64,000 bases of DNA, taken from a virus. Taxonomy: Duplodnaviria; Caudoviricetes. The position numbers and the translations under genes are program-made. This document shows, in pieces, positions 57,978-64,000 of the stretch. Where the stretch lies: positions 1,154 through 65,153 of the IMG/VR virus record IMGVR_UViG_3300035670_000193. One strand, written 5' to 3'. Below the pieces are notes generated by a model. The model saw only the letters and a list, made by a program, of their open reading frames with translations. It was not told the DNA's origin and did no database searches. Position 1 is the stretch's first letter; each line of letters opens with the position of its first letter.

Positions 57978-58326
57978 TTGGGGTTACCACTTAGTCATCG
58001 ATGCCAAAGGTTGTGATACCACTTTAGTCAAAAATTGTGAGTATATACAAACTTTTGTGTCTGAAATGGTAGAAAAAATCAAAATGGTACCATATGGTGA
58101 CCCAATTTTGGCACATTTTGGTCCAGAGCCTTGTAATACCGGATGGACCGTGATACAATTAATTGAAACATCTAGTATTGTTGGCCATTTTATGGATGAA
58201 AGTGGTGACCTTTATCTGGATGTTTTTAGTTGTAAAGAATTTGATAAAAACATAGTTATTGAGTTTTTAAAGAAAAGCTTTAAACCGAAAAAAGTGAAGA
58301 GTAAATTTATCAAAAGGCAAGCATAA
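57970..58326 (+). CDS. speD: S-adenosylmethionine decarboxylase-like protein
   Basis: G.HL..D..GC, QLIETSS (cleavage site region), YLDVFSCK.F. Confidence 0.75.
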   Translation: MSSWGYHLVIDAKGCDTTLVKNCEYIQTFVSEMVEKIKMVPYGDPILAHFGPEPCNTGWTVIQLIETSSIVGHFMDESGDLYLDVFSCKEFDKNIVIEFLKKSFKPKKVKSKFIKRQA

Positions 58327-58346
58327 CTTTTTAAGAGGAAGTAAAA

Positions 58347-58844
58347 ATGAAGTTAAGCATAACTAAGTGTCCAGATAAAAAACTTTTTCGACCTTTTGTA
58401 AAAAGAGCTGCGTTATTTTTTGCTCAAGAATTGATGACTCCAAAAATGTTGGAGAATATTTCAGTATCAATTAAATTTGATAAAAATTTAAATGCCTTTG
58501 GATATGCTGGAATTTTAGATTATAATGACAGCAATAAACCAAGAGAATTTGAAATTGAATTGCATCCAGGAATTGGAGCGCATGATATTTTAGAAACTTT
58601 AGCGCATGAAATGGTTCACGTGAAACAATATGCATATAGCGATTTAAACGAAGCGTGTACTAGATGGCGTGGCAAAAAAGTCGAAAATATGGACTATTAC
58701 GATGAACCTTGGGAAATTGAAGCAAATGGTATATCGTTTAGTTTGTTACAAAAATTTGCAGCAAAAGAAAAACTTTGGGAAGTATTTGAAGATTTTCAAA
58801 ATCCAAACAGAGTTATAGAAAATGAACCTATAAAATGGTTATAA
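58347..58844 (+). CDS. HExxH zinc metallopeptidase-like protein
   Basis: LAHEMVHVKQ...PWEIEA. Confidence 0.75.
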   Translation: MKLSITKCPDKKLFRPFVKRAALFFAQELMTPKMLENISVSIKFDKNLNAFGYAGILDYNDSNKPREFEIELHPGIGAHDILETLAHEMVHVKQYAYSDLNEACTRWRGKKVENMDYYDEPWEIEANGISFSLLQKFAAKEKLWEVFEDFQNPNRVIENEPIKWL

Positions 58845-58873
58845 AAAAACAACTGGTATAAGAAAAATTGAGG

Positions 58874-58893
58874 TGTTGTAAAAAAACAACACT
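58874..58893. repeat. Palindromic operator-like motif TGTTG-N8-CAACA, copy 1
   Basis: Exact 20-bp reverse complement of 60071-60090; both copies lie just upstream of TTGACA boxes. Confidence 0.7.
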
Positions 58894-58907
58894 ACGTTAA
58901 AAAAAGC

Positions 58908-58936
58908 TTGACAAATTTTGGATATATAAGTACAAT
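58908..58936 (+). promoter_or_regulatory. sigma70 promoter P1 of the tRNA array
   Basis: TTGACA, 17 nt, TACAAT. Confidence 0.8.
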
Positions 58937-58967
58937 CGTTTCATTAAATAATTTTTGGAGATTTAAA

Positions 58968-59084
58968 GTGTTTACCCGTTTACAACTCATATCGACACAT
59001 AAGCAGTCTAGTGATTATCGCACATTTATTTGTGGCGAGAATACACCAGCGCTATGGCTTGGCGAAGGGTTTTGTAAAGGATAA
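58968..59084 (+). CDS. Putative 38-aa attenuator leader peptide of the tRNA array
   Basis: GGAG RBS at 58957-58960, GTG start, MFTRLQLISTHKQSSDYRTFICGENTPALWLGEGFCKG, TAA stop; 32 distinct codons in 38. Confidence 0.65.
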   Translation: MFTRLQLISTHKQSSDYRTFICGENTPALWLGEGFCKG

Positions 59085-59110
59085 AATGTAACAAAAATTA
59101 GAATCCAAAC

Positions 59111-59150
59111 ACAAAACCCTAGACCTAAAAAATCTAGGGTTTTTTGTTTT
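59111..59150 (+). terminator. Intrinsic terminator (attenuator) upstream of the tRNA array
   Basis: aaaaccctaga/tctagggtttt stem with a U-tract; its 5' arm is also complementary to 59066-59075. Confidence 0.8.
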
Positions 59151-59158
59151 GGTTTTAC

Positions 59159-59170
59159 TGCTCTTTAAAA
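59159..59170 (+). promoter_or_regulatory. boxA-like antitermination site
   Basis: TGCTCTTTAAAA versus the rrn boxA consensus TGCTCTTTAACA. Confidence 0.65.
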
Positions 59171-59187
59171 ATTAGGTGTTGTTTTGT

Positions 59188-59220
59188 GGGGGTGTGGTGT
59201 ATCGGCTAGCACCCCTTCCA
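59188..59220 (+). pseudogene. tRNA remnant / minihelix ending in UCCA
   Basis: GGGGGTG...CACCCCT-TCCA acceptor-like stem with a D-arm-like insert; no anticodon or T arm. Confidence 0.45.
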
Positions 59221-59222
59221 TT

Positions 59223-59313
59223 CCTTGGATAGTTTAATGGTAAAACAGCGGGCTTATACCCCGTAGCGACAGATAATCGGCTGATATAGGTTCGAATCCT
59301 ATTCCAAGGACCA
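59223..59313 (+). tRNA. tRNA-Ile(TAT) with long variable arm
   Basis: ccttgga/tccaagg acceptor, gcggg-cttatac-cccgt, ~21-nt variable region, TTCGAAT, ACCA. Confidence 0.8.
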
Positions 59314-59385
59314 TATTAAAGCATATTCACTTGTCTCAAGGAGACAGGTTTAGATTCTCAAGGAGTTTCTGAATATGCTTTAATA
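59314..59385 (+). ncRNA. Long-stem spacer element 1 (candidate structured RNA)
   Basis: 16-bp perfect terminal inverted repeat tattaaagcatattca/tgaatatgctttaata enclosing two ctc-aag-gag hairpins. Confidence 0.5.
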
Positions 59386-59393
59386 CGGTCAAT

Positions 59394-59467
59394 GTTGTTC
59401 CTAGTGTAGTGGTCGCACACCTGTCTGTGAAACAGGTAGAGAGGGTTCGATTCCCCGGTTCAACCCA
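59394..59467 (+). tRNA. tRNA-His(GTG)
   Basis: G-1:C73, cctgt-ctgtgaa-acagg, TTCGATT, CCA; two U-U mismatches in the acceptor stem. Confidence 0.8.
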
Positions 59468-59468
59468 T

Positions 59469-59544
59469 GCAACTCTAGCTGATGTGGTCATAGCGGTGGT
59501 CTGAAGAGCCATTGAAACAGGTTCGATTCCTGTGGGTTGCACCA
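59469..59544 (+). tRNA. tRNA-Phe(GAA)
   Basis: Cloverleaf with gtggt-ctgaaga-gccat; ACCA. Confidence 0.88.
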
Positions 59545-59546
59545 AT

Positions 59547-59621
59547 GCCGGGATAGCTCAGAGGCAGAGCACCGTCTTGATAAGGCGGGGGTCGAGATTT
59601 CAAAATTCTCTCCTGGTACCA
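59547..59621 (+). tRNA. tRNA-Ile(GAT)
   Basis: ccgtc-ttgataa-ggcgg; atypical T arm gagat-ttcaaaa-ttctc; ACCA. Confidence 0.8.
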
Positions 59622-59627
59622 AGTTTT

Positions 59628-59710
59628 GCGGAGGTGGTGTAAAGGTAGCCACGATAGTCTTAGAAACTATTGCCAAAAGCGTGTGAGTTCGATTCTCACC
59701 CTCCGCACCA
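59628..59710 (+). tRNA. tRNA-Leu(TAG)
   Basis: atagt-cttagaa-actat, variable arm, ACCA. Confidence 0.88.
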
Positions 59711-59723
59711 GAACCAAAAATAA

Positions 59724-59811
59724 GGAAGTGTGGTCGAGTGGTCTATGGCGCTAGTCTTGAAAACTAGAGGCTCGAAAGGGTCCGTGAGTTCGAATCTCAC
59801 CGCTTCCGCCA
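59724..59811 (+). tRNA. tRNA-Ser(TGA)
   Basis: ctagt-cttgaaa-actag, long variable arm, GCCA. Confidence 0.9.
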
Positions 59812-59817
59812 AATTAT

Positions 59818-59904
59818 GGAGAGTTGACAGAGTGGTAATGTAGCGGATTGCTAATCCGTCGTTTCGAAAGAGGCGCATAGGTTCGAATCCTATACTCTCC
59901 GCCA
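59818..59904 (+). tRNA. tRNA-Ser(GCT)
   Basis: gcgga-ttgctaa-tccgt, long variable arm, GCCA. Confidence 0.9.
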
Positions 59905-59909
59905 AATGT

Positions 59910-59984
59910 ATCTCGCTGGTGTTAACGGCAGCATAGCGGTCTCCAAAACCGAAGGACGGGGTTCGAATCCCTGGCGGGGTGCCA
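59910..59984 (+). tRNA. tRNA-Trp(CCA)
   Basis: cggt-ctccaaa-accg, TTCGAAT, GCCA. Confidence 0.85.
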
Positions 59985-59991
59985 ATTTAAT

Positions 59992-60069
59992 GCATACGTG
60001 GCAGAGTGGTCAAATGCAACAGTCTGCAAAACTGTAAAGTCGCTGGTTCGAATCCAGCCGTATGCTCCA
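59992..60069 (+). tRNA. tRNA-Cys(GCA)
   Basis: acagt-ctgcaaa-actgt, U73, CCA. Confidence 0.9.
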
Positions 60070-60070
60070 G

Positions 60071-60090
60071 AGTGTTGTTTTTTTACAACA
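60071..60090. repeat. Palindromic operator-like motif, copy 2
   Basis: Reverse complement of 58874-58893. Confidence 0.7.
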
Positions 60091-60097
60091 GTACCGC

Positions 60098-60144
60098 TTG
60101 ACAAATTAATGTGGTACTGTTATGATTATATTTGTTCTTTAAAA
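60098..60144 (+). promoter_or_regulatory. Internal sigma70 promoter P2 of the tRNA array plus boxA-like site
   Basis: TTGACA-17-TATGAT (60098-60126); TGTTCTTTAAAA at 60133-60144. Confidence 0.75.
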
Positions 60145-60149
60145 ACGTA

Positions 60150-60226
60150 GCTGGGGGAGTGAGCGCCACACATGGACGCCTATTCTTAAACAACAGCGAC
60201 TATCGGGAGATAGCCAACGTGCCCCT
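60150..60226 (+). ncRNA. Candidate small structured RNA
   Basis: GC-rich island with gggg/cccc ends, a gcgcca-caca-tggacgc hairpin and a ctatc-ggga-gatag GNRA hairpin. Confidence 0.35.
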
Positions 60227-60234
60227 TATTTTAT

Positions 60235-60310
60235 GCACCATTCGTCTATCGGTTTAGGACAACGCCCTTTCACGGCGTAAAGAGGGGTTCGATTCCCCTA
60301 TGGTGTACCA
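60235..60310 (+). tRNA. tRNA-Glu(TTC)
   Basis: acgcc-ctttcac-ggcgt; ACCA. Confidence 0.88.
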
Positions 60311-60312
60311 TT

Positions 60313-60397
60313 GGGTAGCGAGTAGCATTGGTGACTACACCTGACTGTAAATCAGGCGCCTCAGGCATACGGGGTTCGATTCCCTGGCTACCCACCA
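60313..60397 (+). tRNA. tRNA-Tyr(GTA)
   Basis: cctga-ctgtaaa-tcagg, variable arm, ACCA. Confidence 0.88.
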
Positions 60398-60505
60398 TAT
60401 TGAAGTGCATTACTCTCAGCAACAAAGAGCATCTGCGGAGAGGACACGATAACGCTCGACACAATCGAGGCTGCACGGTCGCCGACTCAGTAGTGTGCTT
60501 CAATA
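60398..60505 (+). ncRNA. Long-stem spacer element 2 (candidate structured RNA)
   Basis: 17-bp terminal stem tattgaagtgcattact/agtagtgtgcttcaata (with G-U pairs), related to element 1. Confidence 0.5.
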
Positions 60506-60506
60506 T

Positions 60507-60584
60507 GGTTCGTTAGAATAGCTGGCCTAATTCGTCTGCCTGTCACGCAGAAGACCACGGGTTCGAATCCCGTACGGACCGCCA
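60507..60584 (+). tRNA. tRNA-Asp(GTC)
   Basis: tctgc-ctgtcac-gcaga; GCCA. Confidence 0.88.
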
Positions 60585-60610
60585 TTTGTTTTTAATAAAA
60601 AGGATCCAAA

Positions 60611-61096
60611 ATGCCAAATTATGATTTTGCAAAAGACTTGCCAATCGCTAAGAAAACAGAAAAACAAATTGCTGATTATCTTTGTGAAACGCAAGACATG
60701 AGTTTGGTTGGAACATCAGATACAATTAGTGGTGTTCGTAAATCAGATTTTGATGTGCGTATGAAATTTAATAAAAGTGGAAAAGTTGTTGATATTGAAA
60801 TCAAAGAAGATTTTAGTTGTGCGAGAACAGGTAATATAGGTGTTGAATTTTCTAGTTGGGGTCGCCAATCAGGAATTGAAGTGTCTAAGGCAGACTACTA
60901 CCTATATAAAGTTCACACAGCAGATGGTCGAAAAAGTGTATACATAATTCAGACAAAAAAATTAAAAGAAATGATTGAAAATAAACTCTATCATCGTATT
61001 GTTACGGGGGGTGACCCTGGTTCTGAAAGTAAAAATTATTTGTTTACATTGGCAGTAGTAAAAGAGAATTTTAAATTTTTAGGTTTCATTGTCTAG
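60611..61096 (+). CDS. PD-(D/E)XK nuclease-fold protein inside the tRNA array
   Basis: E..FDV..DIEIKED..TGNIGVE..SGI..SKADYY motif; AAGGA RBS. Confidence 0.65.
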   Translation: MPNYDFAKDLPIAKKTEKQIADYLCETQDMSLVGTSDTISGVRKSDFDVRMKFNKSGKVVDIEIKEDFSCARTGNIGVEFSSWGRQSGIEVSKADYYLYKVHTADGRKSVYIIQTKKLKEMIENKLYHRIVTGGDPGSESKNYLFTLAVVKENFKFLGFIV

Positions 61097-61165
61097 TAGC
61101 TCAGTTGGTAGAGTAGATGACTGTTAATCATTTGGTCCCTGGTTCGAGCCCAGGCTAGACAGCCA
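61090..61165 (+). tRNA. tRNA-Asn(GTT)
   Basis: gatga-ctgttaa-tcatt; GCCA; overlaps the nuclease stop codon. Confidence 0.88.
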
Positions 61166-61170
61166 GTTTC

Positions 61171-61246
61171 GCCGGAGTAGCTCAGTCGGTAGAGCAGCTC
61201 ACTTGTAATGAGAAGGTCGAGGGTTCGATTCCTTTCTCCGGCACCA
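61171..61246 (+). tRNA. tRNA-Thr(TGT)
   Basis: ctca-cttgtaa-tgag; ACCA. Confidence 0.9.
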
Positions 61247-61249
61247 AAT

Positions 61250-61326
61250 TGCGGGTTAGTAGTTCTGGAGAACTCATCGGTCTCATAAGCCGGTCTAGGT
61301 AGGTTCGATTCCTGCACCCGCTACCA
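61250..61326 (+). tRNA. tRNA-Met(CAT), initiator-like
   Basis: U1-U72 mismatch, tcggt-ctcataa-gccgg, ACCA. Confidence 0.75.
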
Positions 61327-61328
61327 AA

Positions 61329-61562
61329 CCCGCTGGGGTAACGCCCGGCTACTGTGACCCGCAGGAAGTGAAGTGAGTTCGTTACTCAGGGGTGGTTCCC
61401 CTCCTTGGATGGAGGCATCGAAAGGTGGGTCTTACCGAACCGGCGTTGGCAATACGAGAATCCTTTGTGGTCGAGGAGTGGGCGGAAGGAGAGCAGGTAA
61501 GACTGGAAGATATCTCGGTCAGTAAGTCTCTCTATAATTACCACCGTACAAAGGAAGCATCT
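61329..61562 (+). ncRNA. Candidate ~230-nt structured RNA of unknown class
   Basis: GC-rich non-tRNA segment between tRNA-Met and tRNA-Pro with several short and long-range helices. Confidence 0.55.
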
Positions 61563-61565
61563 TTT

Positions 61566-61644
61566 CCGAGATTAGGCTAGTCTGGTTTAAGTCGCCTGCT
61601 TTGGGAGCAGGAAATCGCAGGTTCGAATCCTGCATCTCGGACCA
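61566..61644 (+). tRNA. tRNA-Pro(TGG)
   Basis: cctgc-tttggga-gcagg; C1-G72, ACCA. Confidence 0.9.
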
Positions 61645-61661
61645 AATTCTAGGAGGTAAAT

Positions 61662-61859
61662 ATGGCAGATGGTGGTAAAGGAAGTAATTCAAGACCATTT
61701 AGTGTCGATAAAAAAACTTTTGATAAAAATTGGGATGCAATTTTCAAAAACAATGAAGAAAGAAGAGAAAAAATAGAGAAGTTAAATAATGAATATCAAG
61801 ACATTCTTTCAACAGAAGAATGTGTAATTGAAGCTCTTAATAAAATTGAAAAAAAATAA
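61662..61859 (+). CDS. Small hypothetical protein
   Basis: AGGAGG RBS; MADGGKGS..RP.SV...F..NWDAIF pattern. Confidence 0.65.
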   Translation: MADGGKGSNSRPFSVDKKTFDKNWDAIFKNNEERREKIEKLNNEYQDILSTEECVIEALNKIEKK

Positions 61860-63343
61860 TGAATCATGCTTTAATATTTAATTTGGGTACAGATAAAAAT
61901 GGTTACACAGTTAGGTCTGTGGGAGCATATAGAATCGCATCTTTTTTGCGTGAACACCAATGGGATGTGGAGGTCATAGATTTTTTTGATACATTTGAAA
62001 TAAATGAATTATTTAATTTATTGAAAAGTAGAGTTAATAAAAATACTAAATTTTTTGGTTTAAGTTGGCTTTTTCCATACTACGATAATGATTTGAATTT
62101 AAAATTAGAAACGATAAAGGTCACATATAAAACAATACCTATAATATCTGGTTCTAATGCTCATTTAAATATGAACTATGATGCAATTGATTATCATGTT
62201 TATGGTTATGGTGAAAATGCTCTTTTAGAATTATTAAAATATTTGTTTTCGAATAGCAATAGACCACCATTTAATATTAATTTAAATGGTCACAAGACAA
62301 AATATTTGGATGCAAACAAATATTATCCTTCTTTTCCTATGCCAGACTTGACTGTGAGATATGAAAAAAGAGATTTCTTATTAAAAGATGAATTTTTAAA
62401 TACACAAATGTCCAGAGGTTGTATATTTAAATGTAAATTTTGTAATTTTCCAAACATAGGTATTAAAGATGATTACACAAGGTCTGTTGAAAGTATTGAT
62501 GAGGAATTAAGATTAAATTATGACCAATGGGGAATAAAAAATTATGTTTTAGCAGATGAAACTTTTAATGACAGAACTGAAAAAATAATTAAGTATGCTG
62601 ATGCTGTTGAAAAATTAAATTTTAAACCTTGGTTTTCAGCTTTTATGAAACCAGAATTAATGGCTACAAGAAGAGGAGATTGGGAACATCTAGTGAGAAT
62701 GGGAGTTTTTGGACATTTCTATGGCATAGAATCTTTTAATAAAGAAACAAGAAAAATTATTTACAAAGGATATGATGCCGATAAAATGAAAGCAAAAGTT
62801 TTAGAAATTTCAAATTACTTTAAATCTTACAATTCGAACTCATTAGTAACTTTAAGTTTTATTGTTGGTTTACCTGAAGAAACAAAAGAAACTATAAAAG
62901 AAACAAAAAAATGGTTGATAGATAATTGGAAAAATGATAACACAGTTGTTTTTGCACTATCATTATCTAAAGGTTTAAATGAAAGAAAATCTGAGTTAGA
63001 TTTAACTTGTCAAAATTATGGATATATTGAAATGACTGAACATGAAGTTATAGAAGAAATAAAAAAACAATCTGTGTTTAGTCAAGGTTTAATGACACCT
63101 ACAGTTCTTCATTGGAAAAATAAACATATGAACTATTTGGATGCTTGTAAAATAGCTGATGATTTTTTCAAATCAACTCACAACGCAAGTACTAAAAAAC
63201 CAGACATTTTTGGTATGGGTGCCTTTGGTATTGATGGTGATGTAGAAGATAGAATCAAATTTGGTAATGTTGATTTTATTGATATTAGTAAAAGAGCAAA
63301 TGAAAAAATTAAAAATTATAGAGATAAAAAATTATCACTATAA
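61859..63343 (+). CDS. Radical SAM protein with cobalamin-binding-like N-terminus
   Basis: SRGCIFKCKFC (CxxxCxxC), DETFND, GIESF, FIVGLP.ET; N-terminal GAYRIA..G.GE. Confidence 0.85.
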   Translation: MNHALIFNLGTDKNGYTVRSVGAYRIASFLREHQWDVEVIDFFDTFEINELFNLLKSRVNKNTKFFGLSWLFPYYDNDLNLKLETIKVTYKTIPIISGSNAHLNMNYDAIDYHVYGYGENALLELLKYLFSNSNRPPFNINLNGHKTKYLDANKYYPSFPMPDLTVRYEKRDFLLKDEFLNTQMSRGCIFKCKFCNFPNIGIKDDYTRSVESIDEELRLNYDQWGIKNYVLADETFNDRTEKIIKYADAVEKLNFKPWFSAFMKPELMATRRGDWEHLVRMGVFGHFYGIESFNKETRKIIYKGYDADKMKAKVLEISNYFKSYNSNSLVTLSFIVGLPEETKETIKETKKWLIDNWKNDNTVVFALSLSKGLNERKSELDLTCQNYGYIEMTEHEVIEEIKKQSVFSQGLMTPTVLHWKNKHMNYLDACKIADDFFKSTHNASTKKPDIFGMGAFGIDGDVEDRIKFGNVDFIDISKRANEKIKNYRDKKLSL

Positions 63344-63354
63344 GTAATAAAATA

Positions 63355-63430
63355 GGGGATGTAGCTCAGTTGGGAGAGCAGGTGCTTTGCAAGCATCAGG
63401 TCGCAGGTTCGAAGCCTGTCATCTCCACCA
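63355..63430 (+). tRNA. tRNA-Ala(TGC)
   Basis: G3-U70, ggtgc-tttgcaa-gcatc, ACCA. Confidence 0.9.
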
Positions 63431-63434
63431 TAAT

Positions 63435-63507
63435 GCGGGAGTTCTCCTGGGAGAGGACTCAGCCTTCCAAGCTGATGGAGAGGGTTCGAATCCCTTCTCC
63501 CGCTCCA
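63435..63507 (+). tRNA. tRNA-Gly(TCC)
   Basis: tcagc-cttccaa-gctga, U73, CCA; atypical D arm. Confidence 0.82.
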
Positions 63508-63513
63508 AATAAT

Positions 63514-63598
63514 GCGATTGTGGTGAAATAGGTAGACACAAGAGACTTAAAATCTCTCGACTTCGGTCGTGCCGGTTCGATTCCGGCCAATCGCACCA
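63514..63598 (+). tRNA. tRNA-Leu(TAA)
   Basis: agaga-cttaaaa-tctct, variable arm, ACCA. Confidence 0.9.
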
Positions 63599-63603
63599 AA
63601 TAT

Positions 63604-63679
63604 CCGACCGTAGCGTAGTGGATAACGCAGGTGTCTTCTAAACATCTATACGGGGGTTCGATTCCTCCCGGTCGGGCCA
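63604..63679 (+). tRNA. tRNA-Arg(TCT)
   Basis: ggtgt-cttctaa-acatc; GCCA. Confidence 0.87.
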
Positions 63680-63758
63680 TATGGATAAATAATAAGTTGT
63701 GAGTATTGCCATTTTCTTTTGATTTAAATAATGTAAACTACAAAAGGAAAAGGCTAAA

Positions 63759-64000
63759 ATGAAAAAAATAATTGTCGGAATCGTTATGATGACGGCGGCT
63801 GTTTCAGTATTCGCACAAGCTATTGTAACTGAATCTACATCCAATAGCACAACAAATTCAAATTCAAAATCTGAGACTACTGTAAAGTCTCCACCTCCAT
63901 CAGCAATTGCGCCATCAGTCAACACGATGAACAATGACCTATGTACTGTAGGCGTATCTGGTGCAGCACAAACACAAATTCTCGGTATTGAATTGGTTCT
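63759..64000 (+). CDS. Exported protein with signal peptide (3' truncated by the window edge)
   Basis: MKKIIVGIVMMTAAVSVFAQA signal peptide, then SPPPSAIAP..DLC; open to the window end. Confidence 0.65.
   Translation, partial: MKKIIVGIVMMTAAVSVFAQAIVTESTSNSTTNSNSKSETTVKSPPPSAIAPSVNTMNNDLCTVGVSGAAQTQILGIELV

Follow-up and report, generated by a model that had tools for sequence, protein, structure and literature searches.

Leader-peptide attenuators govern proteobacterial amino-acid operons such as trp, his, leu and phe, as well as the multivalent operons thr and ilvGMEDA. The transfer RNA (tRNA) genes of phages, for their part, are usually discussed as fixed supplements to codon usage or as counter-measures to tRNA-targeting defences. 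Here, we analyse a compact element of about 250 nucleotides (nt) that precedes tRNA genes in a 64,000-nt stretch of phage DNA (positions 1,154 to 65,153 of IMG/VR record IMGVR_UViG_3300035670_000193; hereafter the window, meaning this whole stretch). It comes from a 65-kb viral contig of an uncultured phage, with an estimated completeness of 39%. An earlier note on this DNA had proposed that the element is an attenuator that switches on the tRNA genes when translation stalls. On the sequence evidence presented below we give a probability of about 0.65 to a closely similar reading, namely that the element is a ribosome-mediated leader-peptide transcription attenuator placed before phage tRNA genes.

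Several described systems share individual traits with this element. The nearest case in print is a cryptic, long tRNA operon of Anabaena that is induced under translational stress (PMC8421152), where, as predicted for the phage, a supplementary tRNA array is expressed more strongly when translation is impaired. However, that array lies on a bacterial megaplasmid and, according to a 2023 abstract, is controlled by a protein repressor, TrcR (PMC10272220), and the strings 'attenuat', 'leader' and 'terminator' do not occur in the 2021 text (PMC8421152). In mycobacteria, leaderless polycysteine short open reading frames (ORFs) are cysteine-responsive attenuators (bioRxiv 10.1101/834739). They resemble the phage element in placing at the 5' end of a transcript a short ORF that acts as a translation-speed sensor for downstream genes, but they sense one amino acid and control protein-coding operons. 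Finally, the resistance genes mef/mel(msrD) are preceded by a ribosome-stalling leader attenuator (PMC4335068), in which a general slowing of ribosomes on the leader ORF opens a terminator, as would be the case in the phage; there, by contrast, it is a ribosome with a bound drug that gives the signal, and resistance genes are controlled in place of tRNAs.

With the trp/his type, to which the earlier note had likened it, the phage element shares a promoter-proximal short ORF, a terminator before the regulated genes, an antiterminator that uses the 5' arm of this terminator, and a stop codon in a masking position, and to this extent the comparison holds. It does not hold for the run of regulatory codons, of which the leader contains none: 19-20 amino acids are covered instead. 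Moreover, the genes regulated would be tRNA genes, many members of the phage family look leaderless, and in many of them a second promoter follows the gate. The pairing of regions 1 and 2 is also weak or absent in the phage element, so that transcription of an untranslated leader should continue past the terminator instead of stopping there.

The order of features after a gene for a SprT-like protein is an inverted repeat, a promoter (P1), a GGAG motif, a 38-codon ORF, a terminator, a boxA-like 13-mer and nine of the 20 tRNA genes of the window (Table 1). Direct reading of the sequence placed the promoter, GGAG, ORF, complementary ORF end, terminator, boxA and first tRNA exactly where the earlier note had them.

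Table 1. The candidate attenuator and adjacent features, in window coordinates.
Feature	Position	Strand	Remarks
SprT-like gene	58347-58844		Precedes the unit
Inverted repeat	58873-58892		Immediately upstream of the P1 -35 hexamer; listed as a minus-strand hairpin
Promoter P1, sigma-70 type	58908-58936	+	TTGACA 58908-58913, 17-nt spacer, TACAAT 58931-58936; score 11/12
GGAG ribosome-binding site	58957-58960	+	7 nt ahead of the GTG start at 58968
Leader ORF	58968-59084	+	38 codons plus TAA, GTG start; 19 of 20 amino acids, Val missing
Mid-ORF hairpin, possible pause hairpin	59011-59046	+	From folding
Region 2, predicted antiterminator 5' strand	59066-59082	+	59066-59075 plus GGAT 59079-59082; overlaps the last ORF codons and the first stop-codon base
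Leader stop codon TAA	59082-59084	+	Inside the antiterminator hairpin; starts 6 nt after 59075, overlaps the inner helix
Region 3	59103-59120	+	Common to the antiterminator (3' strand) and the terminator (5' arm)
Intrinsic terminator	59113-59150	+	11-bp stem, arms 59113-59123 / 59133-59143, 9-nt loop, T-run from 59140
boxA-like element TGCTCTTTAAAAA	59159-59171	+	After the terminator; second copy 60133-60145
First tRNA unit	59223-60069	+	Nine tRNAs, Ile(tat) to Cys(gca)
Second promoter and associated boxA-like 13-mer	60098-60145		Followed by further tRNAs

The end of the leader ORF and the terminator can be engaged in two structures. Positions 59066-59075 are a perfect 10-nt complement of 59111-59120, and GGAT at 59079-59082 complements ATCC at 59103-59106. 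The resulting hairpin (59066-59120) is the minimum free energy (MFE) structure of 59060-59124, with -15.1 kcal/mol (z -4.29), a value matched by none of 200 shuffles, and the duplex of ORF end and terminator arm reaches -17.9 kcal/mol, against -8.2 +/- 2.4 kcal/mol for shuffled ORF ends (0/200). For the terminator, the core has -13.2 kcal/mol (1/200 shuffles) and the stem can be extended over 59100-59157, where it attains -22.0 kcal/mol (0/200). Its two arms are the only exact matches to the terminator motif in the window. An automated terminator scan did not list this hairpin, whose 9-nt loop exceeds the scan's stated limit of 3-8 nt. As 59111-59120 is common to both structures, antiterminator and terminator are mutually exclusive, as the earlier note had claimed. 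That note had also proposed folding the leader co-transcriptionally: the complete leader folds with the terminator formed, and a transcript cut at 59124, before region 4, folds as the antiterminator in both the MFE and the centroid structure.

In the mechanism that we propose, P1 would start an RNA whose first feature is the 38-codon ORF. As the polymerase advances, region 2 would pair with region 3 and block the terminator hairpin (3:4), and transcription would continue through boxA into the nine tRNA genes. A ribosome arriving at the stop codon in time would instead cover region 2, allow 3:4 to pair, and thereby end transcription at about 59150. Given the footprint sizes established for bacterial ribosomes, a ribosome with the TAA in its A site would cover roughly 59067-59095, that is, region 2 plus the inner helix. 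A ribosome delayed in roughly the first 28 codons would leave region 2 free, and slow decoding would raise tRNA transcription; the geometry of the footprint and the direction and size of the response are all predictions. Because the untranslated transcript folds as the antiterminator and the 1:2 pairing is weak, termination should need a ribosome that reaches the stop in time, and not the full trp scheme; this simpler scheme would imply read-through wherever translation is absent. Anticodon nucleases and starvation, both named in the earlier note, are conceivable triggers.

We then examined 80 loci from among the more than 571 relatives of the SprT-like protein found in viral contigs. A homologous leader, that is, an ORF of 22-45 codons, a terminator and a complementary ORF end, is present in 43 of them. 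This set excludes three loci that have a terminator and no separate leader ORF (L033, L034 and L036), as well as L014, which carries a 21-codon version read by eye, one codon below the cut-off of 22. In these relatives the leader ORF ends 14-27 nt before region 3. Relative to the end of region 2, the first base of the stop codon is at -6 to +18 nt, always within or beside the antiterminator. The terminator is found in 43/43 loci, and so is a duplex of regions 2 and 3 of -13 to -23 kcal/mol, with 31 distinct pairing variants.

The two strands of this pairing change together. Cognate pairs of ORF end and terminator arm have -16.3 kcal/mol, against -13.2 kcal/mol for non-cognate pairs, a difference reached in none of 10000 permutations over 37 distinct combinations, and shuffled ORF ends pair far worse in most loci. 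On a MAFFT alignment (A2), the antiterminator columns are paired in 79.2% of cases, against 24-63% with slid partners, and their covariation is 0.135 against 0.107 in shuffled data (0/500). In the terminator columns of the same alignment, the paired share of cells is 90.7%, compared with 39-71% when partners are slid, and covariation is 0.156 against 0.105 (0/500). These fixed-column counts are diluted by register shifts in divergent members, and they agree with the duplex tests while being weaker. On a full-length MAFFT alignment (A1), poor alignment of the 5' half left RNAalifold with no more than 3 predicted pairs in the terminator, and we therefore relied on the alignment-free duplex tests. 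The comparison of upstream regions that the earlier note had suggested thus reveals a short ORF, an ORF-terminator distance and a pairing that are kept in 43 of 80 loci, with changes on both sides of the helix.

Intrinsic terminators are rarely complete, and the hairpin at 59113-59150 might be nothing but a constitutive, leaky terminator or an insulator, which would let through a fixed, low level of transcription from P1 and from upstream genes with no sensing role for the ORF. The arrangement in L033, L034 and L036, where a terminator stands directly after the SprT-like gene, speaks for such a simple function. Yet a conserved ORF, a fixed stop position, a co-varying antiterminator and the amino-acid coverage described below would all be left unexplained, and we judge this alternative distinctly unlikely.

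Genes for tRNAs were called downstream in 72 of the 80 loci. A DNA-pattern scan, in which region 2, the gap and region 3 served as the query independently of the neighbouring gene, was run on viral sequences and on 596 Gb of bacterial genomes. Among viral sequences it recovered 53 further loci. For 46 of these, the downstream sequence extends over at least 250 nt, and 45 of the 46 show a plus-strand tRNA within 200 nt; in most cases this is a tRNA-Gln, about 117 nt away, at the head of an array that may comprise up to 27 tRNAs. The connection with tRNA genes drawn in the earlier note is therefore recovered from the DNA pattern alone. In the bacterial genomes the same pattern gave 43 matches, mostly palindromic (on both strands) and unrelated, none of which lies within 400 nt of a tRNA.

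In the window, the best promoter match between terminator and first tRNA (59144-59222) scores 7/12, so the first nine tRNAs appear to depend on passage through this terminator. Among the 40 loci, the window included, for which a tRNA was called after the terminator, 15 have no promoter in this interval, and in 12 of the 15 the gap measures only 4-24 nt, so that tRNA transcripts there must pass the terminator. In three loci (the window, L037 and L056) the interval from terminator to first tRNA contains a boxA-like motif and nothing else of note.

Such a motif is present at this place in 26 of 40 relatives. If one mismatch is allowed, the 13-mer is matched 3 times in the window, where chance would give 1.97. 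Each of the two tRNA promoters in the window is followed by a copy, and we take the motif to resemble the boxA of rrn and lambda antitermination. Being positioned after the terminator, it cannot help the polymerase to pass it; it would rather protect the untranslated tRNA transcript further downstream.

That the leader ORF is translated is suggested by its start signals and by its open frame. P1 is joint best among 36 promoter-like sites of the window; shuffled sequences yield 26.9 +/- 5.3 such sites, and promoter likeness by itself therefore proves little. Of 40 distinct upstream regions in relatives, 31 also contain a promoter scoring at least 10/12, and its spacing to the leader start codon is fixed. 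The starts fall into two classes: one has a 5' untranslated region of about 31-35 nt, mostly with a Shine-Dalgarno-like motif, and the other, comprising 15 loci, has an ATG exactly 6 nt past the -10 hexamer and is leaderless in look, as the start codon would be the 5' end of the transcript. The coding frame is open in all 38 distinct leaders, while the two other frames hold 61 and 130 stops. In the ORF list, the window ORF is nested in a longer TTG-start frame (58908-59084). Codon differences between leaders comprise 127 synonymous and 464 non-synonymous changes, and the exact leader peptide is therefore weakly constrained; several peptide positions recur in the alignment of the leader family.

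The peptides are unusual in their composition. The 38 residues of the window leader comprise 19 amino acids, where segments of the same length in the phage's own proteins average 15.1 and reach 19 with P 0.023. The first locus set has 38 distinct leaders, of which 17 are complete, with all 20 amino acids, and 10 lack a single one. Pooling both locus sets, and leaving out three wrong-frame or truncated ORF calls (L119, L127 and L134), gives 54 distinct peptides of 22-45 residues, 31 of which contain all 20 amino acids and 14 of which contain 19. Segments of matching length taken from the proteins of the phage have 14.5 distinct amino acids on average. A null model drawn from the pooled composition of the leaders predicts 0.34 of 54 peptides with all 20, with a maximum of 4 in 5000 trials. 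In the other two frames, 19 amino acids are never reached (0/38 leaders in each). The window leader has a cognate codon for 18 of the 20 window tRNAs and for 9/9 tRNAs of the first unit (strict wobble; null P 0.0012 and 0.0008, respectively). The predicted sensing zone holds 18 of the window's 19 amino-acid types and, on average, 16.4-16.5 of the 18.8 types of the leaders.

Since hardly any amino acid is absent from the ORF, a ribosome translating it could be held up whenever one charged tRNA, of nearly any kind, runs short. We tentatively suggest, as a possibility that does not reach the standing of the attenuator itself, that the leader may act as a census of decoding capacity: a frame of about 35 codons would have been selected to hold every amino acid, and shortage of almost any charged tRNA, whether through codon-usage mismatch, host shut-off or a tRNA-cleaving defence, would open transcription of the phage tRNAs. 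Leader composition may also track the set of tRNAs behind it. The leaders of L014 and L015, two close relatives, are short (21-22 codons). The L015 leader has 22 residues, 15 of which are among the six amino acids served by the tRNAs that follow (p 0.00016), and L014 lacks both Trp in the leader and a tRNA-Trp.

The same leader could in principle be a switch made of RNA only, riboswitch-like or T-box-like, which responds directly to a ligand, protein or tRNA and in which the open frame is incidental. The structured leader and its alternative terminator and antiterminator would suit such a device, and so would the mid-ORF hairpin, which is found at a similar position in relatives (mean z -1.80; z < -2 in 17/37). 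However, a frame open in every leader, with start signals at fixed distances from the promoter, is not expected if the frame is incidental, and neither is an amino-acid coverage confined to the coding frame. Moreover, an Rfam scan of the leader at expectation values (E) up to 1 returned no family apart from a sub-threshold match to OhsC. We consider a direct RNA switch very unlikely, the least probable of the alternatives discussed here.

Some specific candidates were also rejected. The OhsC match, which would point to a type I toxin-antitoxin RNA, reaches 32 bits (E 0.061) where the gathering score is 50, spans 59080-59148 and covers the terminator only; we read it as chance. A toxin-type peptide does not fit either, as the leader peptide spans 19 amino-acid types and is not hydrophobic. 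No T-box riboswitch was matched at E up to 1 within 58000-64000.

Several results weigh against reading the element as an attenuator with an amino-acid-sensing ORF. The permutation P values given above overstate independence because the sequences are related. Pairing of region 1 with region 2, which would form an anti-antiterminator, is equalled in the window by 66 of 200 shuffles and is weak across the family (-12.0 vs -10.8 kcal/mol, mean z -1.25, p 0.0011), and the mid-ORF hairpin of the window itself is no better than shuffles (z -0.17). Differences between leaders at the three codon positions number 284/265/380, a mild preference for third positions that makes the evidence for protein-level selection modest. 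Leader codons readable by the phage tRNAs are not enriched (25/37 vs a background of 0.64, p 0.41), and with the peptide held fixed, synonymous choice does not significantly raise tRNA coverage (p 0.10 and 0.07 for the window; below 0.05 in 2 of 11 relatives). The cognate-codon coverage accordingly reflects amino acids and not codon choice. Of 38 leaders, 24 have Val only outside the sensing zone, and for Trp this holds in 20-21; a simple model fails to explain this. Finally, 25 of 40 relatives have a promoter of at least 10/12 between terminator and tRNAs, in most cases with a boxA-like motif after it. The gate would control only part of tRNA transcription there, and the tRNAs need not rely on read-through. 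The gating of tRNAs by the terminator, as the earlier note had it, would thus be partial in these relatives; the window has no such promoter.

This second promoter also lends weight to a further alternative, in which the leader is an independent small gene or small RNA: the peptide or an RNA of about 205 nt would be the product, the tRNAs would be transcribed mainly from other promoters or by leak-through, and the complementarity would serve RNA stability or folding. The recurrent peptide positions would agree with this, and action in trans has a reported precedent in the attenuator RNAs and leader peptides of Sinorhizobium trpL (PMC7298713, PMC7968998). Nevertheless, the terminator hairpin is the stable state of the full RNA, so that the conserved, co-varying 2:3 pairing matters only during transcription. 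Near-complete amino-acid coverage is hard to explain for a folded microprotein, the excess of non-synonymous changes indicates weak constraint on the amino acids, and the 12 loci with a first tRNA 4-24 nt past the terminator have no promoter in between. We regard an independent gene or RNA as unlikely, and retain leader-peptide attenuation as the preferred reading.

Other features of the locus and of its relatives are as follows. The window genes are T4-like in look and include those for an SMC/gp46-like ATPase, a dCMP deaminase and an S-adenosylmethionine (AdoMet) decarboxylase-like protein. The first tRNA, Ile(tat) at 59223-59313, has a length of 91 nt and thus greatly exceeds a standard Ile tRNA. 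Embedded among the tRNAs are ORFs for a 161-residue protein with no Pfam match (60611-61096) and for a 494-residue radical SAM protein (61859-63343). The inverted repeat upstream of P1 has a near-copy at about 60072-60091, before the second tRNA promoter. Both are of the form GTGTTG...CAACAC, and a similar repeat occurs upstream of the second promoter, after the terminator, in many relatives (L041-L082); the repeat may be an operator or the remnant of an upstream terminator.

In L033 and L034, the SprT-like gene itself is extended, its last codons complement the 5' arm of the terminator, and a promoter and a boxA-like motif then follow. The closest relatives by identity of the SprT-like protein (63-70%; among L004-L032) lack the leader, with the exception of L014, L015 and L024. 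An alternative arrangement in L004-L032 (e.g. L007:3498-3810) begins with a promoter, which is followed by a structured RNA (about 75 nt) with a tRNA-like CCACCGCTCCA at its end and then by an ORF of about 60 codons, rich in Lys, that extends up to a tRNA-Thr; the structured RNA of L007 has no match in Rfam. The Pseudomonas matches of the pattern scan (L141, L144, L149, L152, L160-L164, L168-L172, L176) are scattered palindromic repeats with conserved flanks, e.g. TGTGGGAGC, and are unrelated to the phage element.

Named phages were also searched. In a collection of 50,697 cultured-phage records, blastn with the window region and with the leader of one typical relative matched tRNA genes only and no leader. 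A tblastn search with the SprT-like protein gave 18 named-phage records, all below 60% identity; in the two inspected, Melnitz-3 and Cr30, no tRNA genes are annotated beside the SprT-like gene. These blastn and tblastn searches against named phages yielded no cultured host-phage pair with this leader.

Leader-peptide attenuation as such is well known; what the present comparison supports as new is attenuator-type control of phage tRNA genes with near-complete amino-acid coverage. In agreement with the earlier note, which knew of no such case, we found no description of an attenuator of tRNA genes in the open-access full texts searched. If true, the proposed control would mean that a large group of uncultured T4-like phages, of which well over 90 loci were seen, gauges the translation of its hosts and adjusts its supply of tRNAs. 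It would also extend classical attenuation from the sensing of single amino acids to the sensing of all of them. Should the leader indeed serve as a census of decoding capacity, it would constitute a homeostatic loop encoded by a virus, and the first attenuator known to control tRNA genes.

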